From: Lingula anatina
Taxonomy: Eukaryota; Animalia; Brachiopoda
Assembly: GCA_051362555.1 (NCBI GenBank)
Contig: CM120642.1
Coordinates: forward strand, 6,138,001-6,202,000
Reading direction: 5' to 3'
DNA length: 64,000 bases
The notes under the pieces were generated by a model. That model was given only the letters and a program-made list of their open reading frames with translations, searched no databases and was not told where the DNA came from. A program made the position numbers and the translations under genes. Within the stretch, counting starts at the first letter, position 1. Every line of letters begins with the position of its first letter. Below, piece by piece: positions 25,753 to 64,000 of this stretch.

Positions 25753-25892
25753 ATGTCTGTATGTATGCCTTCTAAAAAGACCACGCTGCTGGCTGCAGCT
25801 AAGGCTGCCACAGTGGAGAAGAGACAGCCAGCCAGCTACGAGGGGGACGGGAAACCAAGGAGAATGACACTGAACCCTGGGGACGGGATTAG
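25753..25892 (+). CDS. KLHL5: KLHL5-like candidate alternative first coding exon B (MSVCMPSKKTTLLAAAKAATVEKRQPASYEGDGKPRRMTLNPGDGIR)
   Basis: GC-rich ORF ending at donor AG|GTGAGC in phase 2 (140 nt), in frame with exon 45551. Confidence 0.55.
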
Positions 25893-39854: not shown

Positions 39855-40321
39855 ATGAGGAAAGGCAAGTACAGGTGTTGCAGCTCGGGAAGCTGGAAGA
39901 AGCCTGAAGGGAGCTCCAGAGTGGGTTCAGCCGAGATCTACCGCTCCCCAGCAGACCTGAGAACATCAGTCATTGCAGAGGAACAGTTTCACGGTGGCAG
40001 CAGAGGTGGCAGTGGTGGTGGTGGTGGTGGCAGTCGCGACTCTTCTCCCTGCAGTCGACGTCACAGTAGTTATTACCCTCAGCCAGGTGTGACACAAGGA
40101 AGTGACACCATCACGCAGCCACAGCACACCATGACCAGTACAGAGGTTGGGAGGACATCCTCGAGTCCTCAGAGGATTGACACGAGTCCTCAGAGGATTG
40201 ACAGGGTGAATACGCCAGGGGGGTTGGGGCAGCACGATGATATGAAAAGGAAGCCTACTGGGTGCAGTGTGGATAAAAATTTATCTAAATGGCCGACTAT
40301 GACACAGCTGAAGCCTTATAT
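39855..40321 (+). CDS. KLHL5: KLHL5-like alternative first coding exon C, encoding a 155-aa Ser/Gly-rich low-complexity N-terminus
   Basis: GC-rich ORF (MRKGKYRCC..GGSRGGSGGGGGGSRDSSPCSRRHSS..). Its apparent stop lies within a consensus donor AT|GTAAGT (40322), phase 2, giving ATG in frame with exon 45551. Confidence 0.72.
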
Positions 40322-41814
40322 GTAAGTAAAGTGATGGGGAAACATTGTCTTGATTATGTACAAACATTTCTGATAGAAGTGAACTTTGTATCGTCAGGGT
40401 TGTTTTCTAGCTGGAGCTCCTTATATAATAATATTCTGTATACATAAGTATAAGCAGATCTTGATTAACCATTAACTGCTGTCTTTATAGTTATGAGCAG
40501 AGCATAAATGTTTTAGATCAATCTCTTTTTGATTGTTTTTGGTAAAACGGTAACAAATAAAAAACCTATGCACTGGCATTTTCACATATGCCCATACATG
40601 CAGCCATGCATATTATTCATGAAGCCATTTGACAGAGTTACACATATCATATAATAAGGAGTTGTGTTGTTAAGAAAAATGCAACCTTGACAAATCAAGA
40701 GGAGAACAACAACACTGTCAAAGAGACCCATTAATGTCTATTTCTTTGATGTTGTCACCGGGTGTCTACAGAGCAGGCCAGGTGCACAGACATCAGACGC
40801 CAAGTACGAGGAAACGTACAAATCTGCACACGGCCCTGTTGTCACTGCACAGCTGTCAGTAAATATACTGTGACGCAAATTAGGATATGAAAAAAGGAAA
40901 TTACAGAAACCCACCAGTTTGAAAATGACAACATTGGTCTGGGTTTAGATACATGGGGCACTTTTGAGGAGAAGAGCATGTGACCTGTTGGGGGGAGGGG
41001 GGGGGGGAGGAAGGTGTAGTCTTTGATGCATTGGTAAAAATGAGAAATGAAAGGTATATGGTCCTTAGAAAAACAGTAAATATAAATGAGATATTCATTC
41101 ATTCTTCTTTTTTCTTTTTCTTACTTGCATTAATGTCAGTGTATGATACAGAATACAGATATTCTGAGTTGGCTGATTCAATATTGAATGCGAGTCGGGG
41201 GCAGAAATGGAGAATAAAAGTAGCTTTATGGGGAATGATAGAGTTTACTACAGGGCAAATGACTGTGGAATGGCTCCATAGATAAGCTGCAGTTCTGTTG
41301 GGTGATTTTCTGCGAGTTCCAAAAGCTATTTTGCAACATCTCAGTTTCCCAGAGGGCAGCCTCCAGCATGGGGAAGTGCAAGTGCTTTGTAATCATACAC
41401 CGTGGAAAGTAGGGAAGTTATCTCAATCATTTACCTTTCGGCTGATCACTGGTTAAAGGTAAGATTCTTGTTATGGGAGACGTTTACATTGGCTGTGGAT
41501 TTTTGGGAGAGATGGGATGAAGTTACTCCAGTGACCAGTGAGGAATTGTTTGGATCAGATATTGTTACGGGTTTTTTAATGTCAGGGAGAATATTTAGAT
41601 GTGGCATATTTAGTGCTCATTGGGAGAGGATGGTTTGTATTTAGACATCAAAGCCACATTGCAGCGGCCAATTTTTTCTTGCAGTGTGTTATTTTATCAC
41701 CCTGAATGATAGAGAGTACAGAGACTTTTCTGTACCCAGCATTTTCTTCACCATCGCCTTGAGTTTCACAGTAACGAGAGAGACTTTTCTGCTCCTGTTC
41801 AGCAGTTACTCTTA

Positions 41815-42367
41815 TACCGCGTTCACACTACAGTTGCCAAAATGCGCATTTCTATAATTCGGATTTTTCGTAAGGAATCAGATTCGGTATTGCGTTCACA
41901 CTCGCTAAGCGAATCCGAATCCCACGTTGAAAATTTCAGGTTAAACTTCCTGTTTTGAACAGTCGCACATGCGCCGCACAGGAAATCTTAAAATATCAAC
42001 AAAAATTTGTGACGACAAATGCAACTCAAAAGACATTCCAGCATTCTTGAGAAGTATAAGGTGGCAAAATAAGTTTGTTTCCTTATGTTGTAGTGAGTGG
42101 TGACCGCCAAATACGTTTGGTGCAATCGCTTAAGTAATAAACCAGCGTTCATAGATACCCGCACTTATCTGCACACATGCGCAGTAAGATCTGTACAGGT
42201 GTCAATTCCTGTAAGTTATCCGGATCGCGCTTAGAAATCCACCTCGCTTGCAGGATTTTGAAAATGCGCATTTTCAAAATCCTCTTGCGTTCACACTACT
42301 GCATTTATTCGAATTGTGACCTAATTTGCAACTTATCAGGATAACTGAGCGTAGTGTGAACGGGGTA
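41815..42367. mobile_element. MITE / non-autonomous DNA transposon, about 550 bp
   Basis: TIRs TACCGCGTTCACACTAC and GTAGTGTGAACGGGGTA; internal GCGTTCACACT repeats near 41893 and 42287; CpG-richer than its flanks. Confidence 0.75.
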
Positions 42368-44025
42368 GTAATTACCCTGAACTTCAAGGGTTCTGACAAG
42401 ACTTCTCTATTTCATTCTCTTTCAGTTTATTCGGGAGCGTCATAATTTGCCTGGCTGCGCAGGATAGCCCGTCTAAGATTCTGAAACTCTTGGGTGAATT
42501 TTGGAGAACTGTTGTCTCAGAGAATACCTGAATTATATAACATCTGGGAGGTTCAATTTGTTCTGACCCATATAGCCTGGTTGTGTAAATATTCCTTGTG
42601 CCATACATGTGTTTTCACACCTCCAGCAGGTATGTGGTTCATCTGTTATGTCAGAAGGTGGTATGTGATTACGCACTATCAGTGTTTTTTTAGGCTATCA
42701 TTCTCTCCATATATATGCGGCTAGCTACTGATCTGATCCAGGAATTTTTTTCAGTGTGTGTCAGGTATTTGTGTAAAAACTGGACATACTTGCCTTTGCG
42801 TTTGCATAAACTTTTGAAAAGATGTGCTTATGACTCTTTTGTAGCAGAAATTATAGCAAGACAATAAAAAAGGAGGTGATCTACTCAAAATAAATTGCTT
42901 GCAAGCTTTGCCTGAATGGTACGAATCAGTTAAATGTAGAAACCCCCCCCCCTGCCCCCCCACGTTTTCGTGCAAGAGAACATAGGCACTTCGATGCAGA
43001 GGTATAAAAAGGTTATAAATAAGACAAAAGTGTAATGGGTTTCGCAGAAGAGGCAAGAAAGATGGACTTCGACAGGACAGTGTTCATTGAGCAGCATCTT
43101 GCACTTGAGTATGATACAAAATGGTGTTGATGCTTTTTACAGACTACATTTTCACCTTCACCAGTCGTATTGATTTTGTTATTTTCTAAGTATTCCTTTG
43201 TGGTAGTAAATACAGTATTGTTACCCAAGCAGAAGTCTTCTGTCATTACAGATGGTTCCTTTATGGCCATTATGTGCAGAATTTTGCACAGTGTATGAAT
43301 TGGGAACATTTGTCTTTTAAATGGCTCTATATTGCAGGTTTTAGGGAAACGGAGAAATCTGTTTACTTACCAGGACAATACAGGCAGTTTTGTGAATGTC
43401 CTTGGCATCCCCCCCCCCCCTTCCAATAATACTGTGAATATCAAATTAATAGTCTCTCATAATAAATTATTTTTTCAATCAAATTTTGAGGAGAGACCTT
43501 TCTTTCAAAGTGGTTCCATTGTGACAACATACCCCATAATGGTTATTCTTGGTAATGAAAAATGTCCTCTTTCAATATTGTTTCTTTTCTTTTCTCTATT
43601 AATCCCTGAAAAGGGTATTCTTATTGGGTCTTATGGGAAATTATCTTGGAGGCCATTTCCAAACTGATGAGATTTACTTGATACTTTATCCCCTTTGGGA
43701 GTAGTACTACAAGTGCCATATGTTATGATCATTTAGTTAATGAAGAGTTACTGTCCTCTATATATGTTTGATAAGGAATAGATGGGGAATGGTAATTTGT
43801 GACTATAATTGTATCTAAAGGATATGGCAGTCGGTGACCTCGGGATCGGGTCTTAATAATTGAATAGTGGGGATTCATTAAAAGTGTGGCTGTACTTTAA
43901 GGAAGAAACGTGCGTCATAGAGAGAGAAAGAGGGAGGAGGAGGGAGAATGGAAAAGGGAGTGATTAAAGGAGAGTGGTGGAAGTGAGAAAGACAAACAAT
44001 AGAAAAAAGACAGTACTAAGAAGGC

Positions 44026-44435
44026 CGGGAATGCACCCACTCTTTGAACCCAGTGGGGAATGCACCCACTCTTTGAACCCAGTGGGGAATACACCCACTC
44101 TTTGAACCCAGTGGGGAATGCATCCACTCTTTGAACCCAGTGGGGAATCCACCCATCTTTGAACCCAGTAGGGAATGCACCCACTCTTTGAACCCAGTGG
44201 GGAATGCATCCACTCTTTGAACCCAGTGGGGAAGCCACCCATCTTTGAACCCAGTAGGGAATGCACCCACTCTTTGAACCCAGTGGGGAATGCATCCACT
44301 CTTTGAACCCAGTGGGGAATACACCCATCTTTGAACCCAGTAGGGAATGCACCCACTCTTTGAACCCAGTGGGGAATACTCCCACTCTTTGAACCCAGTG
44401 GGATCCCAGTAATAACTCAGTAGGAACCCAGTGGG
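44026..44435 (+). repeat. Minisatellite, 28-29-bp unit GGGGAATGCACCCACTCTTTGAACCCAGT, about 13 copies
   Basis: Head-to-tail units at 44026, 44055, 44084 and onward with no spacers; explains the repetitive minus-strand ORFs 43915-44538. Confidence 0.95.
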
Positions 44436-45550
44436 GCATAATTGAACTGCCTGCAGGAGGCAGCCGGGGAGTGGCAGATAAATATTGCAAAAGATCAGCT
44501 GTGTTCCTGCCAGAGCAGATGCTCAGTGGGATTGTCATGGCTGCTTTCCTGAAATAGGCAAAAAAAAGTTCAATTTACAGAGCACAGTATTATTAATTAC
44601 ATGGGTCTAGAGGGAGGCATTGTGAAGCTGCCAGTCATTTTGATTTCCTTTCTGAAATTTATGGATTCTGTTATTGTCCCTGCCAGTGAAGGAAGCTGTA
44701 GCATTGTTGTGTACTATATATAAATATATATGTGTATGTACGTATTTCATGTCTGGCTTACTTAATATAGCAGACTTGAAATCTTCCATGACATCATGCT
44801 ATAACTCTATTATGTTTTTATTTATAACTGTCTTGTGGTGAAGCAGCATGTGACAAGTTTACGAAGTTTGTTGGGTGTGCTTATATAGTATATATATGTG
44901 TGGATTGTATTATGCCATAAAACCAGTATATGCTTTATTAGCTGTTATAAAGGGTAAGGGAAAGATACATCCAGTGTTAAGTGGAGAAGAAGGTAGGAGG
45001 TTCATTGTTTTAAAACATGGAAAGGTTTCTTTACTTAGAACATTGTGGTTGAAGCTAATGCATGGTGGCGAAAGGTTACATTGTTTTTAAAGTACGATAT
45101 TTAGCTAAAAATAACTGTAATACTATGGATGTGGTTGACTTTACGTGTCTGTTCATGTGATGTGAGTATGTAAGTACAAACTGTTATCTGAAAATGACCA
45201 ACCTGCAAGAAATTTGAGGCAACCAGCGCAACCCATGTGCTTTCTTTTCTTTTCCTTTTATTTTTGAACTGGGGGAAAGTTTTCACTTTCTGAGTAGAGA
45301 ATGCCATATTATCGCATGTACTTCCTTAAATTTTATTGTTAGCCATGTCTGACTTAGGATAAATAGAAGCTGAGCACAAAGTTTATTACTACCAGCAGCA
45401 ATTTTGCCAATGGCTGTCTAGAAAAAGTAGACTGGCTGACATATCTCACAAGTTGGAGAGTGATGTGCATGATTACATACAATATTGTGATATTGTTTCC
45501 ATTTCTTTTCATTTCTTTTCAATGAAAAAAAAATCTTTTGTATATTCCAG

Positions 45551-48500
45551 GTACCTGGTCCACCATACGTACGGGGGCTACCATTGTAACAGAATGGAGG
45601 ACCAGAACACAGAAGACCTGTACCGATCCATAAACCATGCGGAACGCATGATCCGCAAGGTGGAAGTCTATGCACAAAAACGTTTACTCTGTGATGTCGT
45701 CCTGCTCGTGGGAGAGCGCACCATTCCAGCTCATAGGCTCATTCTTAGTGCAGCTTCCGATTACTTCGCTGCGATGTTTACAAATGACGTCCGCGAGGCC
45801 ACACAAGAGGAGATTAGGATGAAGGACGTTGATTCTGATGCCCTAGCTGCTTTAGTACAGTACATGTATACTGGTAGGTTAACAGTACCACTTCACAATT
45901 TAAACTTTTCTAAGGGCGCATTCCCATAGATTTTAGATCGATCTATCCCCGTGGGTAATCTCACTAGATTACTGTCAGATAATCTGGCTTAAATGTCCGT
46001 CCCGCCTACTATAAGCTGTAAGGGGGTAATTAACTTTCGTACCTGCTCGGTTGACAGCTATTTAGCGTGAACCCCCAGGGAGTTAGGTCGATCTAGTTGG
46101 ATCGATCTAATCTCTGGGAATGGGGTATAAAACTGTTTTGTTTAAGAATTTAATTTTTGTGTGTTTGTTTGCACGTGATTTTGCTCATGTGGGCATGAAC
46201 AATGAAATCACTCTCTGATTTCCAGCAGATTTGATCATTCATAATTATCCTTTAAAAGTTGTACCTGAAAAAAATTTTGACATTTTTTTTTTTTCAAGTG
46301 AGCTGGGCTAATGTCAGCCATTGTGTTTTCAAAAGTAGCAACAAAAAGTTTTGTTTGAAAAGACATACTAGAATAAGCGATTATGTTTGAAATCTGTGAA
46401 CAATTGCAGTATACATTGACAAGGAAGCAGAGAATGTGCACTGTAATCAAGACAAGAAAATACCCCCGCAGCCACCAGTATGTTACTATTAGGAGAAAAA
46501 TAAGATTGTCACCAGGTTGGAACATGTGAAAGAATTCCTAGTAAAGATGATGTACATTATTAATGAGCTCTAAATGTGACACAGCATATTTCATTGAAAT
46601 GGATTATTTTTTTCACTATTATGTGGAATGGGACCTTTATTAGACAAAAAAGGGATTGCAACCAAGATGAATGTTGCATTTGATAGAAATTCAAATAAAG
46701 ATGGTGTAATGCAATATTAATTTGCTATAAAATGACATTGTATTGAAGTAGATTTTTTCTCTCAATGTTGCTTAGAAGGGGACCTAATTAAGTCTAATGA
46801 AACAACAAATAATTTGCTTAGGCATTAAACTGAAAAGATAATCAGTTGATTTTTTACCAGTTAAAGTTTTCCCCCTGAGGACATTTGTTTAATGTCACAC
46901 ATGTGTGTCACACATTGTAACGTATGCATCTACATGGATAGATGAAAATGTACAAAGGAATGCAAATATATATAAATATGAATTATGATCAAAAGTGATA
47001 TTGTATGACTCCTTGTATGAAAAAAAAAAAATACAAAACATATTTGGCGGAGCCCAAATAGCTCTACCTACTCAACACATGTGTGTGTGTGTAATGCCCA
47101 ACTTATTCTGTGTGCTTTCATCTGCCCTTCTGTAATTTTAGCCTCACTTTGGCATTATAAGTTAACTTAAGTATGAAGTGCATTTGATGTGATTGTTTCC
47201 TGAAATGACTATGAAAATTTATAAAACATAAACATAGATTGAAGCTTGTAGCCATAGGGTGTCTGTAGCTCAGCTTGAAGGTCACAGTGTATGCTGGCCT
47301 CTAGAAACATTCAGATGCAATATGATGTTGTGTATAAACTACAAATGGCCTGTTACCAGGAGTAAAATTAAGGAGCTTAACCCAGAGGCAGTTAAGACTC
47401 ATTACACAAAGCCATCGCTGTCAGAGAAAAATTACCAAGAGCACAGCCCATAAATACGGGTGACAGGGAGAAATCCACGGGGGACGGCAAAGAGCATGGG
47501 AAAGTTTTTTATTGCATTAGAATACTGTGTCTTTTAGCACCTCTCAGTGAGGCTGAGTCACTGTAAATGGCATGACATCATCCTATTAGATAATAGAAAT
47601 AATGGTCCCAGTGTATCAGAGGGATGAAGTGAACAAATCTGATTATCAATTATTTAGAACAAGCTTTTAAGAGAAGGGATTTCATTCTGTTATTATATTT
47701 TCCAAACACATTAAGTATGCATGCTCACATATGTGCGATAAAAAGAATTACGTTTGAGCTAGTATCATAAAACATTGAAGATTTGCAAATGTAAGATAGA
47801 CGCTAGCTGATTCCATTAGTTTTATGATTTTTATTGTTCATTAATGAAGTTGAGATGGATAAGAATCACCTTCTGGCATATGGAATTAAAGCTGGAGAAA
47901 AAAACAGGTGTTGGGAGACTACTAGCTGCAATCAGTGAAAAAACGTATTGTATTCTTTCCATTGATCCAAACTTGATGAAAAGATTCGGTGCCTGGTCAG
48001 TTGGGGAGAATAATGAATGCTAAAAAGGCTGAATGACTGAAAGAAACATGATAGAACTAGCTGATATTTGGTTTTCTAAATGAGGAAAACTCAGCTGTGG
48101 TTTTCTTTATGTACATAAGTGATCAATATGATGCGTACAGAAAAAGCTTTTAGTCCTTGCTATCTTGAGCTATTGATTTTCACATCTTCCCTGAGAGTTG
48201 AGACAAATTTGATAAAGGATCTTTCCCCTAGATTTAATGAAAAAGGTTCAGGAGAGCCTGAAGGGGAAGCTTGCGATGGCCATAAAAATTCTATTACCAA
48301 TGATTGTTGACACTTATATTTAACTGTTAGATTTCATACATATCCGACTTTCGCAGATTTTGATTGGGTTTTTCTTTGTCAAGCATGCCTGATTTATTCC
48401 CGTTTTCCATTCGTGACAGGAATCCTTTGAAATGCAAGTTGAGAGATTTCGACGTTTTGAATGACTGTCATCAACAGAAGAGATCTTTTTTGTCGAGATG

Positions 48501-51500
48501 AAAGCACTTCTGATGTGAAGAACGTTATTGTTAATCTTATAATACTCTGTAGTGATATTGATCCTGGGAATTATCTTCTCCCCATTAACCCAGGACCATG
48601 GCACTTTTTCCTAAATTTAGTTTCTTTTTCACAGTTTCTGAAAGGGAATCATGCTGTTTCTGTTCTTTTCCTTTTTATTATTTTTTCCTTTTATTTGCTT
48701 TTCATCTATTTTTAAGTGGTTTTGATGTGATTTGTAAGAGTTTCCAAAAGGAAATAACATTGATTCTTTTTATTTTCCATTTTTCCCTTTTCTCCTTTTT
48801 TATGTGGTTTTAAGATTTGTCAAAAAGATCATTACTCAAGATATTATTAACTTATTTGAGGATACAAACAAATCTCCATGAGCAAATGTGTGCATGAGCA
48901 GGCATGCATGTGGGTAAATGTTTTCTAGCTTAGGGACATTTTACACATTTTCCAATGCACACTTGCTCTCCTAGATTAAATTCTGCCTCAATTACCCAAA
49001 GGGAATTACAGGAACAACTGATTGAATGATAATTAAGTTTTGTCTGAAGCTGAAACCTGTTCTAATTCTGCTTTCGTCACAGTTGCCTCCAAAATCCTTC
49101 GCGAGCCAAATTAAGCAGTAGAGTTAAAAAGAAAGAGTGTTTAAACAACATTCACAAAAGTGCTGGGACTGGAGATCAGTTTGAAGAATCAAATTATAAG
49201 GTATGATTGTTTTTCCTCCACTGATATTGCACCCACAATGCTATGGTCCCGGAGTTCACTGTAGCCAGATGAGTGGTTCCTGTGATGTATTTGGGAGACT
49301 AGACAATTTGATTTGCATAGTGCTACTTGTTGGTGGAGAGAGAGGGTAGTAGTGGTTCACCATCTGCGATGGCATTTTTTCTCTGCTATAGTTAAAAGAC
49401 ATCCAGTTCCTCAGGATTGAGCAGTCCCCGAGATGGGAGATCAAAGAGAGAAATAAAAATCACTGTTCAATAGTTTTTTCGCAATATCGGTGACTTTTGT
49501 CCCACTTAGCCTTTCATTTATAAACAACGTAACCAACACTTCATCTCTTCTGTGGCAGTGGCGCAGTTATGCAGTTATCACACATAATGAAAGCACGCCA
49601 TTTTGACAGCTTTGTCACTTCTGCGGTTCTGAGCAATTCTCTTCACTAAATTAAACATCAATTTCGCCATCCATCTACACTTAACTGGAACAATTGAACT
49701 GCAATTTTAAACCATCATACAGGGACTTACTGGGAACCTACTCTGATGAAGGTTATGATGGATGACAAATAGTGCCTTTGTTGTTTTTTTCAAAAGATAT
49801 TTTCATCAAACTGGGGAAAAACAGTCAAATGTGACTTGGTCAAATTTAAATTAAAATTATCTTTATTATAATCACTATTATTAGTTTAAAAGACTCTAAT
49901 TACTATTACCATTGTGGACAAAAAAAATTTTAAGCAATTGCACCGACTGTTATATTTATGTAGAAAAAATTTTCAAAAAAATTGCTTCATTTCAATTTGC
50001 CTTAGCTAAGTTCTCTAACTCCCAAGATATCTGTAACATCCAAACTACTTCTCAGTAGTGATGCCTTTTAAAAGAGCCGACCATAAAAGATGTGAATATT
50101 TCATTAAGGAACATTATCAGATTCTCATCTTTCTGAGCAGTCTTTCCATCCATCACAATGTACCATTAATGGAGAGCTATTAAGCTTATACCAGGCAACA
50201 TAACCCTATATAGCAGCACAGATTACAGCAACGCCTTTAATCATACTTTCAAGAAGGAAAAAAAGAGAGAGAAAGAAAGAGATGAAAAAACTATACATTA
50301 CACCAGATGTGCAATTGTACCTTCATATTTCAAAAATGGGGAAATTTGCTGTAATAGCCTTTGGCAGACTGCAGTAATTTCTCTCTATTGGATTCCCTCC
50401 ATTACGGTTGGCTGCCCAGGCGACACGATCCATCAGCCGAGGCCCCGAACCTAACACATGCTCCCCGTTTTACTCTCGCCCATGTGATTTCATTCCATGT
50501 TTCACTACAGTTGACTGCAAATCACATTTTCTCTGGCATAATAATATTGGTGAGACCAACGCAATTATCCACTCCTTCTCTCCGACCCTATTAAGAGAAT
50601 TAGCTCCTGGGTTACCTGACGCCAGGCTGTGGCAAGATTTAGATTGTCTGCCATTTGCATGAAGACACTGATGTCTACTCTCTTTTCATAAGAAAAATAC
50701 AAAATAAAATGAAAAAAAAAAATTTTGATAAAAACTTAATTTCTCACATATATAATCTCTAATCCTGTGTCCTGCACAAGTTGCTTATTTGAGACTTTTT
50801 AGAAAAGAAAAAAGAGGACTAAGCATGCATTTTAGCAGGCAATTTTCTTGGTCTCTTCACACAGGCCTAGGCTAAACAATGTGTTGGCGAGTATTTGCAA
50901 ACAACTGGGAAAAATAAATAAAAGATTAAAAAAAAAAAACAAAAAAAACAATGATTAATAAGTTTGATTCACAGCCATACAATAAAACTTTGGGACAGCT
51001 CAACTCTACAGCAATTCTGCATCGTCCAGAAAAAGCAGCAGAATGCCTCTGTTACTTTTCAAAATTGGTGGAACATTAACCATCTTCAGGGTTTCCCAGT
51101 GACTTTCTCGCCAACAAGCATATCCTCTTTTTTTATACAAACCTCAAGCACCATCAGCCTTCAGTGATAAGTACGTCTTTTTCCTGTGAGTCAAGATGTC
51201 AAACATGGGCAGACAAATGAAAATATTCTCCCATACTTTGGCATGGGAATGAAAATATTTCTAGTTGCCCCACACAGGTTGTTTGAGAATGGATCTCCTC
51301 ATTTATCTGGTCAATGCCAGGCCCACACATGAATAATCAGAGGAAAAAACTCTTCAAGTAAACCGCAGAGTGCTCCTTATTTCTACCCTTTTTTCACCTA
51401 GCTAGGTGCCAGTTTAACAAATGAAATTTTGGACCAAAACTATAGCATTTTGGCTCAAGATAAATGAGTGTTTACTTCAAGAAAATACTGTGCCTGTTTT

Positions 51501-54500
51501 ATAATAAGTAGGAAATGACTTTGGTTTCATACCAATGGCTGCTTGTTTTGATTGACATCTAGAGATCTATTATGAATTAAAGTCAATTAAAATTCAGGTC
51601 TTAAAGTTAAAACTTTTAGCCAAGTTTTTTTTTTCAATCCATCTCCTGATATAATGCAGGTTTTGATATCTTTCTGATTTCAAGAATGCCTTCACAGATA
51701 GCATAGGACCATAGGGGTTGGTGGTCAGCAGCTTGCCTTCTCCAAGTAGGCGTCAACTTATAAGCTTTTACCAAATGTTAAGATCTGTACAACTTTCAAA
51801 GACGACCTTAGGAGAGGTGTTTAGCCATGGTATAATTCACTTCCCAATCTCAGTTTTACTCTGTACTTGAAAATATCATTACTGCATTTTTCTTTAGCTA
51901 AATTACATCCACATGTATTACATTTTTACAATTTACTTTTTCATTACTCTCATTTCCTTTAAACTTTGCTGAAAATCTGTTTTTCATACAAGAATAAACT
52001 TTGTTCGTTCCTTTTTTCCCCTTTCTGCTGAAACAAGTTTTCAGGAATGTCAATAACGAGGCACAGGTTTCACTGATTAATTGTCAACAAGTAGCTCAAA
52101 ATGACTTGAACCCAACCAATTTTTTCTTAAGTTCAAAATGTCCCCCTTCCTGCGATAAATACCCAAAGGAATTTTATTATTTTTGGCACCACTATGATCT
52201 GTATTTCCCTGTTCTTATTTAAGAGAAGTGGTTTAAGAGGTAATTTTTTCAACCGAAATTTGATATTCTCTTTGACAAGACATAAATACAAAAGAACATT
52301 TTTTTCACTGACAGTTTTGCATTTAATGGCCCCAAGGAATGAAACTGCTATAAAGAAGATAATTTATTTTGGGTAGGGGGTATGAGATAAGAGGAAGAAT
52401 AGCAGCAATATAACATATGTACATAAGTTACACAGAGCATTTGCATACTAGAATTAAAGACTGTGAAGACATTTTATAAAAACAATTCATTTACTAAAAC
52501 AATAACTATCATGATTTTGTGACATTCACTTGGTTCAAACCAGTATACTCATAAGTACGTCTTGTTATGCCAACAGACTGTGTTCATATTCTTCATTTAG
52601 ACAATAATAAACTCCATGTAAAACCAATCAATCAATTAAAACAAACAAGTAAGATAACTGTCATGTTTTTCTGACATTCACTTGGCACAGCCAGGTATAC
52701 CCAGCAGCTTATCTTAGAATCTAATACATTACTGCAAGCATCTCCAATCCTGAAGGAACTTGTAAGGGGGGGGGGGGCACTTTAGATGATTCTTTTAGGC
52801 AACAGGCAAGCTATTCAGTTGTCGATCTCTCAGTTAATTGTACCACTGGATGTGAAAGGGGCCTTAATGAGGGGTAATTGCTCCTGAATTTTCAGATATT
52901 TCACTCATTCCAAACATCATGTCATTTTTGAGATTTATAATGTTTAGATACTCACAGATGTATTTCTGAACTAAACCTATTCTAAATATTGTTAGTAGGA
53001 TATTATACTTTTTTTTAACATACAAGCAATAAAAACTGTTTAAATTTCATTAAAAATTACTGCAATCCCAATGGAATATTAACAATGCATCTTAATCTCA
53101 AAAGGTGTTTGCTTAAAAAATAGGGATGCCAAGATAGTAATATTTTCGTGGATGCTTTTGCCAAAGTGTAATGTCACAGGGCTAGCATTTTCTTTGAATT
53201 TCAAGAATTACCCAGATGTTGGAAAATATTCCTGAATTAGTTGCAGGGACTTGGCATGTTTGATCACTTAATGTGCTTACTTTTGATTGGCAGTTCTGTT
53301 AAAGGTAAACTAGTTTGTATAATGTCATCATTTTTTTCCCCCTCTTTACCTTGAGCATTGTCCCATTTCCGTATATTTTCCTAAACTTTACACAAGATGA
53401 ACAGCTTCTGTTGACAGAGGACGGAAATAGTTTTTCTTTGCAAAGAAAACAATGGGAAAGTCTACACAAAGATGATGGGTGGCCATACTGGTGGCTGAGA
53501 AATTGGTTAAGTAAAGATACCTTCTTAGACAGTGTTCTGCTCTCTTGAATAAAGTTACATGACAAAATGTCAGGAAATATGAGTCTTGTCTAAAATTAAT
53601 GTTTCTTTTTACTTGCAGGAAATTTGAAGGAAGCAAGCATGCTACAAAGCATTGTTTAGTCTATGCTGGAAAGATGATGAATCATGACATGGCCAGCTAA
53701 TACTAATACCCTGAATGATTATGCATATATTCTTCCAGCTCAGTAAGATGCTGAATAATCTGTTGTCATGAGTCACATGTTAAAACTTTTTCTCTTTTTG
53801 TGGCTTCCTTCTTCAGGTTTTTGAATTGCTGAAGTATAAATGTATGCATATCAACACTACTAACAGGTTGCCAACTCTTGGAAATATGAACATTTACCTG
53901 TGCTGTACATGTTATGTGCTAACTCATCCAAGAATATGCAGCACTTTGTTTCATGCAAATATGTGAAATGGTTTACATATGTGTATGCTATGTATATGCT
54001 ATTTTGATTGCATGGCACTTGTTTTCGGGGAAGTCTACAAACCCATTTTAGCTAGCCACTGTAATTTGACCACCAGCCCACACCTAGAGGGTACCATGGG
54101 TTTGGCCAGGAACCTCTACCTCAACTGCTGGATATACAAAACCCTATCACCACCATCACTGGCACTTCTCCTCATATACCACAATGGCCTTACTTTATAC
54201 TTATACTTTCAGGAAAAATTTAACTCTGAGATTAATTTGTCATGTCTTGATAGTTTTACTCTTAGGAAAGTTGAACTCCAAGATGAGTCTGCTATGTGTT
54301 GACATTTTTACTTTCAGGAAATATTGAGCTCTGTGATGAGTCTGACATGTCCTTATATTTATACTTTCTGAAGGAACAGTGCGCTGAGATGAATTTGTCA
54401 CAGCTGTACATTTTTACTTACAAAAAATACAAAGCTCAGTGACGAGTCCATCATATCATTATTTTTCTCCTTCCAGGAAGAATTGAGCTGCGAGATGAAT

Positions 54501-54683
54501 CTGTGGAGAGCCTTCTGTCCACGGCGTGTTTACTCCAGCTGTCTGAGGTGGTAGAGGCATGCTGCGGCTATCTCATGAAGCAGCTTCATCCTTCCAACTG
54601 TTTAGGAATACGGCAGTTTGCCGATGCTCAGGGATGTACAGATCTGTATAAAGTCGCCAATAACTATGTCATGGTAAGTGAAG

Positions 54684-54726
<43 letters not shown>

Positions 54727-57700
54727 ATATTTTCATTGCATTATTTGGAGGAAGATCATAAAACTGATAATGATGATAATAATAATCATAGTAATAAGAA
54801 AAATAAAGATAATAGTAATAATAGTTATTATAGTAATTATTATGTATCGAACCCATTTCTTCAGATGATCAGATGTCACAGACCATTTGGTAAGTTGAGA
54901 TTTCTGATGGGTGAAATCGTGGGAAGAGCCCAATATTTCTGTTAAAAAAGAACAGCAGTATAATTATCTCTTTATTTTCATTCTTGAAGGAAAACTTTTG
55001 TGATGTGATGCAAAATCAGGAGTTCTGCGAGCTGTCAGCAGATGAGGTGTCCAAACTCCTGACAAATGACGATCTGAACGTGCCAAATGAAGAAATGACT
55101 TTTCATGCGCTGTGCACGTGGGCAAAACACGACATGAGCACACGCAAAAAATACCTCAGTAAATTACTCGCCAATGTCAAACTGCCATTATTACCTCCAC
55201 AGGTGAGATTGTTTGGATGGTTGGTTGATGCATTGATTGATAGATGGACTGACTGACTGATTGACAGCTTGGTTTGTTAGTTCATTGGTCAGTTGGTGGA
55301 TGGAATAATTGATTAGCAGATTCACAAAGAAATCTTGCCGAGTCAGTTAAGCATGGAGCCTTAAGGTGTGAATTGATCAATGGCCAGGTTTTATAGAAAA
55401 TCTGAGTTAAAAGTAGAATCTGGTGTATGTGGTTCCTTTTAAAGATCTTTTGTTGCTTCCCTAGCTTGCCGTTTCTTTTTGATAAGTAACATTCAGAGGC
55501 ATACTTAAAACCTGAACTTGTTGGAATGAAAAATATGTCACAAAATATTCAAACCCATTCAGGATTGGTAATGTTAACAGAGGTGATATTGGGTATTTTT
55601 CTGGAATGGGTTCTGCACCTTACTGATATGTTATTTTCCTCTGTGGAATTGGATTTAGTCCTTTAGATGCATACTTACACTTAAACCTGTTCAGTAATAA
55701 AATGTGTATCTAAAGGACTAAATCCAATTCCAGTGTGCAAATAGGCTCAGTTTCACAAAATCAGCTATTTTAATTTGACAGCTTCTTTCCTTGATCCACT
55801 TTTAATTTATTTTGTGCTTTTTTATGTTTTTGTAAAACAAGCCCCAATATAATAGAATCATCCCAGTCAGTGTCTTGACAGCTTATCCCCTTCATCCCTT
55901 TTTCAGTTCATTGCGGACCACGTAGAAACTAATGCTCTATTTAAGGAAGACAGAGAATGTCAGGAACTGATAATGGAGGCCTTGAAGTACCACCTCCTCC
56001 CCGAACGCCGCCATTCCCTCCAAAGTCCTCGCACCAAGCCGCGGAAGTCCACGGTGGGCGTCCTGTATGCCGTAGGAGGGATGGACTGCACCAAAGGTGA
56101 GTGTAAGTTGAACCTTTTTATTTAGTTGCTTTAATCTTGCTTATTTCTTTAAAGGCACACAGTGAGCTTTAGACCTTTGTATATTATGTAGAGGATTGTT
56201 TATATTCATGGAAATTTTGACTCTTTGGCTTTTGATCACCCTAGGTTTGCTGTATACAAAACTGATGACACAATCACAATCTATAATCCTTTGTTTTCTT
56301 GGAGTTTCTTATTTTGGAATCACTCTTATAATGAAGATGCACACTGTTGAACACCGCTTTTGGTGATAAGAATAAGAAATACAGAAGTTAAAAAACAAAT
56401 TTATAGATAGTGATTTTCTCAACAGATTTAGATAGGGTACAGCATGTTGTGATAAAGAGAAAGTTGCTGAAGTTTCCTGGAAAATGTTCTCCTCAGCTTT
56501 AAGAAGGTCTAACATGCGTTGTTTGCCTCTGTTAACTTGATAGTTTCTTCAAACAACGGAATTATTTGCACTTCAATATATTGGTGTCTCACCAGACACT
56601 TCCTAATGGATATGAAGCTACATCCATTGCAGTGTAAATAATGCAGAGTTCAGCTGGTGTTTGAAGAAATTATTATTGTCACTTTAGATGTACAACACAG
56701 CTGATAAAATTCTTTGTTGCCTAATCTTTCTTTTTTTATGAAAATTTTTTTTTTTTAAGTAAGAACAGGCACATTTATAGCTGGGTTCTATTTTACTGGT
56801 GGTTGATATTAGATTGTGTTGAGTGATTAATTTTGTTGTCACTTAACTCTTACTTTAATCATTTATTTAACATTAGATGTCACTGATTATGAATTAGTCT
56901 GTTATTTTGCTGTTCAATTGTGGGGTAATCTCAATACATTCTGGCACTTCCATTTATTATGACAACCTCTCTAAGTTGTTTTAATAAAGCAGGTAGTTTT
57001 TAAGAGAGTAAGTCGCTATGTGTATAAAAAAAGTCACTATGTTTTTAAGAGTCACTGAAATGGAATCCCTGTGCTGGGCATTGCTAGTTAACCTGATTGA
57101 ATTTGACTGATCCAAACTTGCAAAAGGGGGGCATCCTCCCCCACCCCACCTCCTCAATAGTGTAATTACATGTTAAGACGAGTTTTAAGTGTTTTGATAC
57201 ATATATGTATGTGTTTAAAGCACAGATTTTAAAAAGGCCAAAGAATGCCTTTGGAATAACCAGAAATTTGTTCTATTCAAATCTAGTATTATCTCTGTTG
57301 ATAACCCTGCTTGGGTGGAGATCTTGGAGCTAAATTGCCTGGTTATCTGCTGATGAGGACTTACTTGGTTAACAGGAGGGCATTTTCTTCATTTCTCTCT
57401 CAGTCAGCTGAAAAGATAAACTGTTGCCACAATGAATTGTGGTTGGATAAAGACTATTTTGGATTGGAATAATTGGATCTAACTTGAGGCCGTCAGACAA
57501 TTCCCAGTTACACTGCAGACTTTTGAATTCCATGTACTTGGTCTTCTATTGAACACAAGTAGGACCAATATCTGTCCAAAGTTGTCCCTGTCTGAGCAGG
57601 CCAGAGAGGACTGATTTGCTGGTGTCGGGAGGATATAGAATGATATTCCTTTGTGATCTCCTCAATTTGTTTTGGGCACTTTGTTATCATTAAAATAAAT

Positions 57701-58998
57701 TAGATATGAATCTACAGACCAGGATATAGAAGATTTGAAGACTTTTGGGGAATCCAAATTTTGTAGTGGGATAAGGATGTTTAATGTTTAATACAACTAA
57801 AATAGAAATATAAAAGAAAAAACATCGTCGTTTGAGAGGCAGTTTAGAGGTTAAAGTGTATGCTTTTGATGGCAGATATCTGGTAAGTTTTTCAACAAAG
57901 AAAACCAAAAAATGACCAAATATTCTCATATATCATACACACACAGGTGCCACAAGCATAGAGAAATATGACTTCCGTGCCAACACCTGGACCCAAGTGG
58001 CCAACATGAATGGCCGACGTCTGCAGTTTGGGGTTGCCGTCCTGGAGGACAAGCTGTTCGTGGTGGGGGGCAGGGACGGCCTGAAGACCCTGAATACTGT
58101 GGAGTGTTATGATCCCAGGAAGAAGACGTGGAGTCTGATGCCACCTATGTCAACACACAGGCATGGACTGGGTGAGTATCTTGACTGGCCTTGTGCTGGT
58201 TTTTAAGGTGCATTTCTAGTAAAGTTAGAACCAATTGACTTTGTGTTATCTGAACAGAGCATGGGGTAGTTTCACAAGAAAACGTTATCCTGAAAATTAG
58301 TGTTTGCTTTTAGGCCAAAAAATTTGTTATTCTCAGTTTAGGATAAATCTATAATAGTCCACTAAAAATGAAATAAAATAAATGTTAGTTTGAAACATGG
58401 GCTATATCTTTCCTGTTATAAAACAGAAGCAAGATTTCAATTAATTGAACTACTACAGATTCATCTTCTGGGGCAAAGTAGACTCAGATTTCAGTCTAAA
58501 AGTTTAGACCAACTTTCACTTTGATAACCAGAATTAAACTGTGCATGTCTTTGCCTCAAGCAGAAGTCTTTCCTATTGAACCCTGGTGCACCAAGGTTCC
58601 TAATGGCTTCCAGTTAATTGGAAAGTGCACTTTGGTGAACCAGAGATAGAGCTTCGACATGCAATTGCTGGCACCATGATTAAATTGGCTTTGTTACCTG
58701 CGTGTGCAGGGCATGGCAATCGCCTCAGATTTCTCTGAAATAGTGGCATCTGGATGATTAATTGAGATATCTAAGATGAGTCCCCCCCCCCTTTTTTTCT
58801 GACAAGGAAATTGGTTTTAGATTTTAACACAGTTAATTGAATTGCTTGCTCAGTGAATTGGGTAGATAAGGTTGCTTTCATAATTTAATTTCATATTCAT
58901 GGCTTTCCTTTCTCCTGTTTTTGCTGTAACTCATTCGAAAAATGTCAGTTCTTTGGACCTGTTTGTAACAAGCTCAGTTAGCGCTAAGTTCCATTCCC

Positions 58999-59029
<31 letters not shown>

Positions 59030-61608
59030 ATGCACGCATACAATTTTCTAGAGATGAAAGTCTTCTTTATTTATATGGAAATACAGATATTTGAGTGATG
59101 TTTTTATGGTCCTTTGGTGCTTGCATTTTCTGAATTTTTTTTAAAAAGTCCACTTTCATCTCTAAATCTATTCCATATGATAATGATTTGATTTGGTATT
59201 TTTTGTCTCAGGTGTTGGGGTATTAGAGGGTCCAATGTATGCAGTAGGGGGCCATGATGGCTGGTCCTACCTGAACACAGTGGAGAGGTGGGATCCCCAG
59301 GCCAGGCAGTGGAGCTATGTGGCCCCCATGTCCACACAGAGGAGTACTGTAGGAGTCACTGTTATGTGTGGGAAGTAAGCACTATTCTGTTTGTGTTTGT
59401 GTGTGCCAGTGCCATCTGTTGGACACAGTGAAAACTATTAAGACCTCAGCAGAAAGCTGAAGCTTCTTTCAGAACTTTTATGATTTCTTTTATCAAGTAT
59501 TAGAATGTCTTAAGTCAGGGTGAAATCAAACAATTTAAGATTAAAAAAAAGAATTATATTAAAAGCATATGATAGAAATAGACTAAGAATGAAATCATTT
59601 TTCAGTTTTCAAGGATTCTAGTAAAAATGTATCTATAATCTGGTAATCCCTTGAATTTCGAAATGTCTCACTCATTTTATTGTTTCACTTTCGAAAATCT
59701 ATCATTTTAGTCACTAACAAAATGCACTTCTTGACTAGAAGCCAACTCCTTTTTCAGGACTTTCAAGTCAATGCATAAAATATTTGTTTTGGAGAATACA
59801 ATAAATACATTTTGTTCAATTGAAGCAAGTAGTTATCATATCTAATATGACAATTTTCAGATTGTATGCAGTTGGTGGCCGCGATGGCAGCTCATGTCTC
59901 AGGTCCATGGAGTGTTTTGATCCTCACACCAACAAATGGAACCTCTGCGCGCCTATGTCCAAGAGGCGTGGCGGGGTGGGTGTGGCCTCTTTTAATGGGT
60001 TTCTCTATGCAGTGGGCGGCCATGATGCTCCGGCCAGTAATCCGACTTCCAGTAGATTTGACTGTGTTGAAAGGTTAGTATAGTGTATAGTGTAAAGGGT
60101 AAGAAGATGGTACCCAGATATGCCTTATATCAGATAATTGCAAGGAACATAGTAGCTTACGCCAACTCTGAAGGATGTTATGTTGTACTTACTATGTAGA
60201 TAAGATCATATTTATTTTTATCTAATACTTTTACTGTATAAAAATGACAATGAATTATTATTATTATTATAATATAAGTCATCCAGTCATGTTTTTCATA
60301 AGTGGTAGTACTCATATTATACATGTTATATATGTTGCACTATTTTCTTACCTCCAGATATGACCCCAAGACAGACGTATGGACCACGGTGGCCCCCATC
60401 AGCTCTATGAGGGATGCTGTGGGGATGTGTGCCCTGGGGGACCGGCTGTTCTGTGTGGGTGGATATGACGGGACGCAGTACCTCGCTGATGTGGAATGCT
60501 ACGATCCAAATACCAATGAATGGACAAAGGTAGATTTTAAACAACTAGGTATCCAAATCCCTTCAACAAATCCCCTTCCAAGTTTTCCAGCCAAAATATA
60601 ATACTGCCTATGAATTTCCCCTTAGTCTCGTATATATATAATTGTTACATGAATTGTTACTGAAGATGACATGCTTCGGGGACTGATTTAATTATTGATG
60701 GATTATTCTATAACAGATGCATGCTTCTCATACATGTTCATTATTATTGAATTAATATTTGTAAATATATTTGTAAAGACTTCATTATATACAGAAAAGA
60801 TGAATTTGACACAATATATTGTGGCAAAAATTCTAGCAACCCCCCCCCCCCCCACACCAAATATATTCTGCCAAAATATTATCTGCAGTCAAAATTACTT
60901 CTTTCCTTTTTTCCTGAGCTTGCACATCTGCATAAGCATCAGGATATACATTCTACTTAAATTGTGTTATTCTTAGCCATAATATAGCAGGTGTAACATA
61001 CTGAGTGTGACCGTGATTGTTTTCTGGTGCACACAAAGTAGATTGCACAGACCCATGATGAGAAATGAGTTTCTTCACAACCTCGGCTCTCTGGGGAAAT
61101 AAATGAAAGTAAATGGTTTCCAATTTGGGAGCTGGATTTTAATTGTTACATGAAGTCTGTTGATTTATTAATGGGACTTCGATTTGATTGATGAGATGAA
61201 CATGGAAAGAAGGAAAAAAACTAAATATATGAGACTTTAGGGAAATAGGCAGAATTATGTTTTGGCTGGAAAACTTGGAAGGGGGTTTCTTGAAGAGATT
61301 TGGTACCTTATGGTGTCGGTAATATATGTAACCACATTTTGGGAGCAGTTGTTGATAAAAAAATGGGATTTTCTGAGTGTTCAGTGGGCTGATATCAGTA
61401 TTATAAAATGGGTTGTATTACTGAAATGAGTCCTTACAAGTGTTGCAGGTAATTTGTGAAAAGTGCATAGCACTAAAGCATTCACTAAGAGGGCATTCAA
61501 GTGCTTCTTTATTTGCAGTTGGCTTCCATGTCATTTCCTTGACTTGATGTGCTTCTTGCAGTATATACCTTCAGTTTTCATATTTCACCAGTAAGATGAA
61601 TCACACTG

Positions 61609-61657
<49 letters not shown>

Positions 61658-62256
61658 ATGAGAATGGGCAATGATTCAATCAAAACTCACCACACGAACC
61701 CATTAGATGGATGACTGGTAATCTCTTCTGTTAATCCTAATTTTAACGATTGAGAATTAATTGCACTTTCTCTGCTGTCTGTGTGTACGGCAGCACAGAA
61801 TTGCTGTGTTGAGTTCTGAGTGATGGATTGTCCATTTGACTGATTAGTCTCCTACTAATTTGTTCCTCAGAGATCTAGAACTTTTGTGCAAATCAGAAAT
61901 AATAAGCCTGCTCAGTTGACAGGCTTCTGATGAAGACTGGGTTAAGGTCAAGGCAGTGATGACATAGAACTGAAGAGCTCTCCAAGTTAAGAACCAGAGA
62001 CCCAGGTGTCACAAAGTGTGTTAAAACTCACATTCATGCATGGTACACCACATCTGGGTCTTTTGTTCTAGCCATCTACCATGGTTTTAAAAACATATAA
62101 ATATACTAAAAAATGACCAACATTAAATTTTACTGTTTTCGTTTTACAAAACTTGTCATTCAGTGAGATGTATCTCTATTGTTTCAGGTCTCTCCATTGT
62201 GCACGGGGCGTGCAGGTGCGTGTGTGGTTCACATACGGCACACACAGCTCATTTGA
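45551..62256 (+). CDS. KLHL5: Kelch-like protein 5 (KLHL1/4/5 family), BTB-BACK-Kelch CUL3 adaptor; shared exons 45551-45873, 54477-54673, 54990-55202, 55907-56096, 57947-58171, 59212-59374, 59861-60073, 60358-60529, 62188-62256
   Basis: BTB ([34 protein letters not shown]), BACK ([23 protein letters not shown]), linker [21 protein letters not shown] and kelch repeats ([64 protein letters not shown]) typical of KLHL5. All junctions are GT-AG with consistent phases. The 1765 shared nt give 628, 634 or 743 aa with first exon A, B or C. Confidence 0.95.
45911..46129. mobile_element. MITE inserted about 40 nt downstream of the BTB exon donor, same family as 30752-31007
   Basis: Ends CATTCCCATAGATTTTAGATCGATCTA and GGATCGATCTAATCTCTGGGAATG; shares ATTTAGCGTGAACCCC with the 30.8-kb copy (reverse complement). 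Confidence 0.65.
54195..54502 (+). repeat. Degenerate tandem array (about 53-bp unit) made of copies of the splice acceptor and start of exon 54477
   Basis: TACTTTCAG|GAAA..TGAGCT..GATGAGTCT-like units with junctions at 54212, 54265, 54317, 54373, 54423 and the real acceptor at 54476. Confidence 0.7.
54684..54843 (+). repeat. (AAT)n microsatellite, perfect then degenerate
   Basis: A perfect AAT run of about 40 nt directly after the 54674 donor, followed by degenerate ATAATA repeats. Confidence 0.9.
55644..55732. repeat. Perfect 25-bp inverted repeat (89-nt hairpin) in a KLHL5 intron
   Basis: TGGAATTGGATTTAGTCCTTTAGAT (55644-55668) and ATCTAAAGGACTAAATCCAATTCCA (55708-55732). Confidence 0.85.
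61610..61655 (+). repeat. (CA)n microsatellite
   Basis: About 23 consecutive CA units. Confidence 0.95.
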
Positions 62257-62484
62257 CAGGAGGCTTGCGGGTCACGGTACGGGGCCTCGCTGTGGCCCGC
62301 AGATGGAAAATGCAGGATCTCCCCGGCTCAGAGACGCAGCCCCCGTCTCACCCCCGCGCTACCTCTAAATTCCATATTCCTGGCCAATGAGAGTGACTCT
62401 TCTGGATCAGAGGGGGAGCTGTTCAAGAGGTCTTTACAAATTATAAAAGAAGAACAGCCCCCACCTTTGGAGACGGCACTTTGA
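62254..62484 (+). other. Candidate stop-codon readthrough cassette and 75-codon C-terminal extension of KLHL5
   Basis: TGA-C, 8-nt spacer, 13-bp stem (62265-62277 with 62290-62302); open frame 62257-62481 ending ...PPPLETAL then TGA 62482-62484. Confidence 0.55.
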
Positions 62485-64000
62485 AGAAGAAGTGTATCTT
62501 AGAGACGCTGCTCTCATTTCCACAGTGTTAACATGGCTTCCAAACTTGCACACTCAGAGGAAAATTTCCTTCGAAAAATTCTCACACAGCTTGCTATGTG
62601 ATCCAAAAGTCTTTTGCTGTAGTGGGAAGATGTTGCCAGCTTCCATTTTGATTGGCTGTGAATGGCCTTTTAGAAGTGTATCAGGCTGTCATTTATAGTG
62701 GAACTGTGCTGCCATCTATATTTGAAAACTGGTTTCACTTTACCATTAGTGTGCATTATGGTCTTTCAGAGAATTGAAGATGGCCCTGGTAAAACTGCAG
62801 TTTACATTCAGCTGTTATGTCTTATCTTTTAGTACTTTCCAACTGACATCATAGAAGGGTTCATGTTGAAGATATTTCTTTTCCGTCAAACATTGTTAAC
62901 ATCTGAAGCTGTGCTTCGTTGTTGAAGTATGCACCCATGCACCTGTTCTGAAATATGCAATCAATTTTTAAGAGTGCCTTTCTTGAATGCACGGCGTTTC
63001 CACACTCGTCTTCTCAATACTGACAGAGTCAGTTTATACACGCTTTTCTGATTGTGATCTCAATCTTAATTGTTTGAGTGATATGGTTTACAGGTGAAGA
63101 AAAGTGAAGGGGAGAGGGGAAAAATGATGCAGTGGGCAGTAATGATGAAGAATGTGATTTATATTGATATCATGTTCTAATGAGGATGAAATACTCTCTT
63201 GTTATTATATTTATTAGCGTCTGATTTTGCAGCATAATTAGATCTGTCCATGAAGCTTGGGAAGAACTAAGTACAGGAGAGCTGGTATCTTCTAAAATAT
63301 TCACATATTTTTTAAAAATCTCATAGTGAAACTCTAGTGAAAGAATATTTGTATGTATTATGAAAGATCAGTCAGACGACATTTGGCTGCATTTTGGCAA
63401 TAATTTAATGACCTTTGTTCAAGTAGTCTGCTATGGGACAGAGTAGAAAATATTTTATTTCAAACTTTGAACATAAGCCCAGCAAATCAGAGCAGTCATG
63501 ATAGTCTTATGCGTTTGATGATTGTTTGGCATATTTGTAGCATTAAATGTGCTGAAGAATCTAGACTCAGCAGCTAGTTTTTTCGTTACCCATGCTTTTT
63601 TGATTTAGCTTACTAACAATTGGTAGGGTGTAATCCACTTAAGTGAAGTAGCCAATTTTGATGTATGCCTGAATCCTTCTGTGAAGGAAAAGTTTCAAAA
63701 CATGTCATCTGTAAATACTGCAAGGTCATCCTTGCCATCTTGTTATAGTTAATATCAACAGGTTATGGCTTCTTTTGTAAATATGTATTATACTTCATCA
63801 AGCAATAAGTGGTGAAAGCAGGTGTTTTTTATTCTGGAGAATGTAAGGGAGTTTTAATTTCCAAGGTGATCTGATGAAGAGAAAAAAAATTGAAAAAGGT
63901 CAAGCAAAGGCAGCTTCAGTTAAGTAAGGGAACATTTTAGGCTCAACAGATTTAACCTAGGGAAGTATAAGATTTTGAACTTAGTACCCAAAGATGTGAC

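Follow-up and report, generated by a model that had tools for sequence, protein, structure and literature searches.

Drosophila kelch, an adaptor of CUL3 with BTB, BACK and kelch domains and a UGA stop (bioRxiv 10.1101/2020.06.22.165522), is the closest described counterpart of the gene treated here, KLHL5 of the brachiopod Lingula anatina, which has the same architecture and the same stop codon. We report that UGA readthrough stimulated by an RNA hairpin probably extends Lingula KLHL5. The gene lies on the forward strand of a 64,000-nt stretch of contig CM120642.1 (assembly GCA_051362555.1, positions 6,138,001 to 6,202,000), called the window below, and all coordinates refer to this window. 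Drosophila kelch resembles Lingula KLHL5 in its 8-nt spacer, in its stem of about 14 bp and in an extended isoform, proposed for Lingula, with an intact first open reading frame (ORF) (PMC3159437). The two differ in stop context (UGA-CAG in Lingula KLHL5, UGA-AUG in kelch), in the hairpin, which is local in Lingula whereas the kelch stem is counted among extended 3' structures (PMC3159437), and in the length of the tail, 75 codons in Lingula against about 790 in kelch (2382 nt; PMC13278127, T3). Readthrough of kelch has been shown by blots and reporters and is enriched in neurons, whereas that of Lingula KLHL5 is inferred from variation only. Kelch is KLHL2/3-like, whereas the Lingula gene belongs to the KLHL1/4/5 subfamily. 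The mechanism proposed for Lingula KLHL5 is a known one, but in another subfamily and another phylum than Drosophila kelch.

The same arrangement of UGA-C, a spacer of 7-9 nt and a stem with at least about 12 bp is described for alphaviruses, furoviruses and coltiviruses, although the Lingula example is a cellular gene with a compact loop of 10-12 nt and not one of about 100 nt (PMC3159437). The geometry supports readthrough, because a spacer of 8-9 nt and a stem of 12-14 bp match those of alphaviruses and Drosophila kelch (PMC3159437). Drosophila drifter/vvl (dfr) shares with Lingula KLHL5 a local stem-loop about 9 nt past the stop, the distance and stability of which matter, but it has a UAG stop, encodes a POU transcription factor and has been dissected experimentally (PMC13170385). 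Among lophotrochozoans, FVa/EFLGa of Platynereis, for which readthrough has been proposed, resembles the Lingula gene in that its second coding region is conserved and reads show no alternative transcript; it differs in being an annelid neuropeptide precursor with antibody support, and the accessible text describes no stem (PMC3890597). This annelid gene is the one lophotrochozoan instance of readthrough in the literature found (PMC3890597), and abundant readthrough is reported only for Pancrustacea, that is, insects and crustaceans (PMC5100048). Neither KLHL1/4/5 nor brachiopod readthrough appears in the accessible part of PMC8557429. A wider literature search, in which subscription papers were thinly covered, likewise gave no report of either. 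The putative fly orthologue of KLHL1/4/5 is, we presume, CG17754. By name it is absent from the accessible 2,851-row table of Drosophila candidates, some rows of which carry no symbol (T3 of PMC13278127).

The elements at the 3' end of Lingula KLHL5 are these:

62188..62253, + strand: coding part of the last exon (22 residues), from the splice joint 60529/62188 (GT..AG)
62254..62257, + strand: the first TGA stop and the C at +4 (TGA-CAG), candidate readthrough site, from the sequence
62257..62264, + strand: 8-nt spacer from stop to stem, with an in-frame AG (62258-59), from sequence and folding
62265..62302, + strand: predicted RNA hairpin with arms 62265-62278 and 62289-62302, 13-14 bp, -23.7 kcal/mol
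62257..62481, + strand: in-frame extension of 75 codons, 24% Ser+Pro, from the sequence and the variant pattern
62470..62481, + strand: C-terminal E-T-A-L, a candidate fitting the class I PDZ-ligand pattern
62482..62484, + strand: second in-frame stop TGA, from the sequence, with no variant there

The first stop (62254-62256) directly follows ...HIRHTQLI and is itself followed by CAG. The preliminary description of this locus had named the TGA-C, the 8-nt spacer, the 75-codon frame and its predicted peptide, which includes SLQIIKEEQPPPLETAL, and all of these were found exactly as given when the sequence was re-read. The tail was also confirmed to be richer in GC (56%; 67% in the first 94 nt and 49% in the remainder) than the distal 3' untranslated region (UTR; 35%). 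At least 75 open codons follow 49 of the 3934 stop triplets on the + strand of the window (1.2%), and the chance of a 75-codon open frame is 0.5% at the composition of the distal UTR and 8% at that of the tail itself. Judged by sequence alone, stop, hairpin and open frame make a weak, suggestive case, and it is the pattern of variants that carries the argument.

Within the species (organism A), the tail has 13 variant sites. Of these, 10 are synonymous, whereas identical base changes would be expected to give 4.3 (P=0.0013; pN/pS is about 0.12), and the +1 and +2 frames have 2/13 and 1/13 silent sites, respectively. The excess is present outside the hairpin (9/12 silent, P=0.003) and after removal of the five weakest variants (6/8 silent, P=0.011); the other three of the 13 sites replace an amino acid (A>T, I>V and Q>R). 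At 62438 the window reads A (Gln), whereas all covering reads and contigs in seven organism A runs have G (Arg); the window thus holds a rare allele or an error at this position. A divergent relative (organism B, about 10%) is represented by contig X11, with 17 differences in 163 nt and an alignment that breaks at 62348. The contig keeps TGA-CAG, and its listed changes comprise five silent ones in the known coding part and three at silent third positions in the tail. Its 30-letter loose end, read by eye, holds a 6-nt in-frame insertion, five silent changes and two replacements (L-T-P-[T-P]-T-L-P-L-S-S against L-T-P-A-L-P-L-N-S). Organism B alone gives 8/10 silent (P=0.0014), and the pooled non-redundant sites from both sources give 17/21 silent against 6.6 expected (P=3e-6), with two silent sites in each of the other frames. 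Decay of CpG does not account for this bias, because CpG transitions make up only 4 of the 21 pooled sites. Neither a stop-gain nor a frameshift was seen in the tail among the variants of organisms A and B, and the density of variants is 13 in the 225-nt tail and 5 in the 26 nt past the second stop (62485-62510). The tail evolves like a protein, in frame 0 only, and is very probably coding. The preliminary description had asked whether an orthologue retains these elements; organism B retains the TGA-C, the frame (its insertion being in frame) and nearly the whole stem, as a single relative.

Transcripts were followed in four RNA runs mapped on 60300-64000, with a second mapping on 62186-62510; about 6-26% of the reads of each run were used, and a splice joint was listed only with at least 3 reads in a run. 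A single joint was found, from 60529 to 62188, with 83 reads (35+2+7+39) in the four runs. Coverage continues through the tail and the UTR and is still high at 63896-64000, so the 3'UTR extends past the window. The stranded runs X13-X16 contain essentially only + strand RNA; an antisense gene was considered and rejected, the reverse frames being interrupted by stops and the stranded reads essentially all sense. No variant falls at 62254-62264 in any of the four runs of the 62186-62510 mapping, organism B included, and no splice joint that skips the stop is listed in the RNA runs. As to splicing around the TGA, a route to the extension that the preliminary description had raised, the reads show no joint past the stop and make use above about 5% unlikely.

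UGA-C and a hairpin precede 75 codons with mostly silent variants, and some ribosomes are therefore likely to pass the stop. A minority of ribosomes would insert an amino acid at the UGA, where the near-cognate tRNAs are those for Trp, Arg or Cys, and would produce a longer KLHL5 with a 76-residue tail predicted to be flexible. By analogy with the known systems, the hairpin may lie at the mRNA entry channel and slow termination, such that a near-cognate tRNA beats the release factor. Because BTB-BACK and the complete kelch propeller would be kept in both isoforms, each of them would be expected to bind CUL3 and substrates. The tail, rich in Ser and Pro and ending in ETAL, might alter the location or stability of the ligase, perhaps through a PDZ scaffold to which it docks, and the rate of readthrough may peak in neurons if fly kelch is a guide.

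All 13 base pairs that the preliminary description proposed for the hairpin form in the minimum free energy (MFE) fold, the three G-U pairs included, and a 14th pair, U-G (62278-62289), is added that leaves a loop of 10 nt; in a context of 331 nt, each of the 12 pairs of 62266-62277 has a probability of 0.9-1.0. Within-species variants number none in the arms and one, silent, in the loop, and organism B has one change, at the terminal pair (62265), and none across 62266-62306. Of the 13 variants, one falls within the tail's first 94 nt, where spacer and stem lie (P=0.009), as would be consistent with extra constraint. The read depth of run X15 declines from about 51 to 32 across 62252-62273, at the 5' foot of the hairpin, a drop that is not clear in X20 and may be a library bias from stable structure. 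A predicted long-range pairing of 62243-62262 with 62377-62395 was set aside and is not relied on, because the within-species variants 62388, 62391 and 62394 sit in its paired bases.

Several observations weigh against readthrough as proposed. The hairpin is firm in the ensemble, but its stability is modestly above chance and in most windows not clearly beyond that of shuffled sequence: z is -0.81 for 64 nt, where 38 of 200 shuffles do as well, and lies between about 0 and +1 for windows of 74-164 nt, against -1.85 for 50 nt (11/200) and -2.85 for a tight 42-nt window picked post hoc (2/200). Covariation in the stem, for which the preliminary description had called, found no support; no compensatory change was seen, and the sole change in an arm loses the terminal G-U pair. 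Variation in the arms compared with coding third positions (1/10 against 5/13) does not differ significantly (P about 0.14-0.18). The variant data comprise 28 entries from the mapping on 62186-62510 and, from that on 60300-64000, the 40 listed of 155. For organism B, the sole other species compared and covered to about codon 38 of 75, 8 of the 17 differences are listed and the other 9 lie near the ends of the alignment. None of the 12 listed indels of the distal UTR is a multiple of three and the tail has none, and this absence from the tail is by itself not significant (P=0.16). The distal UTR is moreover not a flat control, 12 of its 34 listed variants being 'silent' in frame 0 where 8.2 are expected (P=0.09) and 17 of the 34 falling at third positions. 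No annotated relative has a homologous tail. The P values are uncorrected for the choice of this feature from a large scan, a choice of which the variant data are independent. Of the proposal as first made, the frame-0 coding signal, the retention of stop, context and nearly the whole stem, and the lack of any splice seen hold, and stem covariation is not supported.

The main rival, overlooked in the preliminary description, is a tail that is coding but reached through a rare alternative 3' splice site, by joining the donor at 60529 to the AG at 62258-59. The resulting 60529-62260 joint would skip 24 codons, the TGA among them, and remain in frame (…EWTK-EACGS…). This acceptor continues the frame of the upstream exon, which ends in phase 0, its pyrimidine tract (9/17) is no weaker than that of the real KLHL5 acceptor at 57947, and such splicing would account equally for the silent bias and the retained CAG; a KLHL5 model from the tubeworm Ridgeia piscesae (P0281, see below) also departs from the normal protein at the same donor position and continues into a long tail. 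We nevertheless hold it to be unlikely, as the 60529-62260 joint is not listed at all against 83 canonical joints and no partly aligned reads are found among 73 in X15 and 39 in X20. With these approximate read counts, alternative use at 10% would be rejected at P=0.0004 and use at 5% at P=0.04, while use at 3% gives P=0.19. All five RefSeq isoforms of KLHL5 terminate at HTQLI. The spliced product would in addition lose the last kelch beta-strand (residues 563-567 in the AlphaFold model), a strand that closes the propeller in kelch proteins, and the position of the hairpin at exactly +9 would have to be coincidental. As an observation in its own right, the CAG after the stop offers an in-frame AG|G acceptor candidate (62258-62260), and TGA-CAG could lead gene predictors to bridge readthrough stops.

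An untranslated tail, in which a GC-rich proximal 3'UTR is kept for RNA structure or regulation and the open frame and silent bias arise by chance, is given slightly less credence still. It draws on the chance of about 8% for the open frame at the tail's composition, on the mild frame-0 bias of the control UTR (P=0.09), on the selection of the feature from a large scan and on the searches in which a homologous protein was not found; it has to contend with 17/21 silent sites in frame 0 only and 9/12 outside the hairpin, with a 6-nt insertion that keeps the frame, with a variant density that climbs past the second stop and with CpG transitions at no more than 4 of 21 sites. Recoding of another kind, be it A-to-I editing that turns UGA into UGG (Trp) or insertion of selenocysteine directed by a selenocysteine insertion sequence (SECIS), would yield a coding tail as well, and the Lingula hairpin resembles the stop-proximal element of SEPN1 (PMC3159437). 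We regard it as very improbable. No variant is recorded at 62256 among about 51 reads of X15 and 13 of X20, a depth at which editing at 5% has about an even chance of being missed. The scan for a SECIS that the preliminary description had proposed was made over 62100-64000 in a 3'UTR that extends beyond 64000, and it gave neither an Rfam SECIS match nor a SECIS-like pattern; homologues end near this position with no aligned Cys. The locus accordingly has neither of the marks of a selenoprotein, a SECIS in 62100-64000 or Cys-aligned homologues. Hairpin-stimulated readthrough of the UGA remains the explanation that we prefer.

The tail is mostly without predicted structure (single-sequence AlphaFold pLDDT 62, with no helix or strand after residue 25). 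A class I PDZ ligand has the form x-S/T-x-hydrophobic at a free C-terminus, a pattern that by our own estimate is met at a few percent of random C-termini. The terminal ETAL is kept within the species, its sole variant, in the Thr codon at 62475, being silent. Protein searches for homologues of the tail returned none, either for the one candidate of near length or among 115 longer ones; phmmer against the full library gave four hits, of which the three examined are unrelated repeat proteins, and Pfam gave no family. Among 292 proteins screened for their ends, only P0105 and P0125 besides P0281 run far past the usual end, and these two, a cockroach protein and an old Lingula model in another frame, were taken as prediction artefacts. 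Long KLHL5 models of Littorina and Nucella proved to be extended at the N-terminus and have no tails. In metagenomes the KLHL5 C-terminus matched 56 loci at 24-58% identity, none of which was taken as an orthologue.

The identity of the gene is well established. Its queried kelch exon is a 100% match to the RefSeq 'kelch-like protein 5' of Lingula anatina (P0005), the Pfam search of the product returns BTB, BACK and six kelch repeats (Kelch_1 x6), and a tree of 16 rows, restricted to KLHL1/5-type proteins with no outgroup subfamily, places the protein in the clade of lophotrochozoans, as a member of KLHL1/4/5. The exons upstream were mapped by tblastn of the RefSeq proteins P0005 and P0124 against the window, with 90-100% identity per match and approximate ends:

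39855..60529, + strand: KLHL5 coding exons upstream of the last exon, from tblastn and Pfam
25753-25905 and 39855-40322, + strand: alternative first coding exons, from RefSeq isoforms and tblastn
45552-45881, 54476-54673, 54990-55202 and 55907-56098, + strand: exons, from tblastn
57947-58173, 59212-59376, 59861-60074 and 60358-60529, + strand: further exons, from tblastn

The last exon encodes the final kelch beta-strand, at P0123 residues 563-567 (AlphaFold model, mean pLDDT 87). The five RefSeq isoforms share the end ...HIRHTQLI, and nearly all relatives with an intact end terminate within a few residues of the Lingula first stop; for this reason the first stop is regarded as ancestral in position and not as a recent nonsense mutation. 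RefSeq holds two near-identical Lingula KLHL5 loci, on scaffolds of 250,976 and 776,954 bp, which are probably uncollapsed haplotypes. If they are paralogues, some of the 'alleles' are paralogue differences, and the argument from selection is unchanged. The KLHL5 of the window differs slightly from the proteins of both loci. Tandem splice donors at about 56098-56104 add two residues in RefSeq isoforms, and variable N-termini similar to the alternative first exons of Lingula occur in KLHL5 of molluscs. An intron of the gene harbours a GC-richer tandem-repeat array (43918-44574) in which all three minus-strand frames are open, and upstream of KLHL5 a 248-codon open frame (1909-2652) resembles, by eye, another kelch-type beta-propeller gene.

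Another long tail is found in the KLHL5 orthologue of Ridgeia piscesae, P0281 (KAK2188119.1), which diverges from the normal protein at that same donor position (NEWTQ) and then runs on through about 450 residues rich in Ser, Pro and Cys. This tail is matched by four ENA proteins of 441-455 aa with 91-98% identity and in-frame indels, while the close relatives P0079, P0119 and P0283 terminate normally at VVQLPNS. It has no Pfam match and no usable match in the ESM Atlas, and it does not align with the Lingula tail (E 0.36), to which it is not homologous. A scan of prokaryote genomes with the tubeworm ORF gave one short match that was taken as chance. P0281 looks like a model in which the gene predictor bridged an in-frame stop and ran on into a frame of the kelch ORF2 type; its tail could also come from a genuine alternative exon or from an adjacent gene. 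We raise only tentatively, and consider rather doubtful, the idea that KLHL5 readthrough is an old lophotrochozoan feature with a 76-residue tail in lingulids and an unrelated ORF2 of about 450 residues in vent tubeworms (P0281-P0287). Were it true, the Ridgeia stop after VVQLPNS would directly precede an in-frame CAG-like codon and then PHLAMSGCS, and KLHL1/4/5 would be a second, independent lineage of BTB-kelch CUL3 adaptors with a leaky stop, besides insect kelch, in which the leaky stop joins a lineage-specific targeting tail to an intact ligase. If the tubeworm ORF2 is a readthrough tail, readthrough in the kelch family arose at least twice.

Lingula KLHL5 would add to the known instances a brachiopod case in a second family of CUL3 adaptors, with a coding signal at the level of the population as well as across species. 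Its stop, 8-nt spacer and 14-bp hairpin offer a short cassette that can be put to the test. The case suggests that readthrough stimulated by RNA structure is in wider use than annotation shows, and that isoforms are missing from current gene models.
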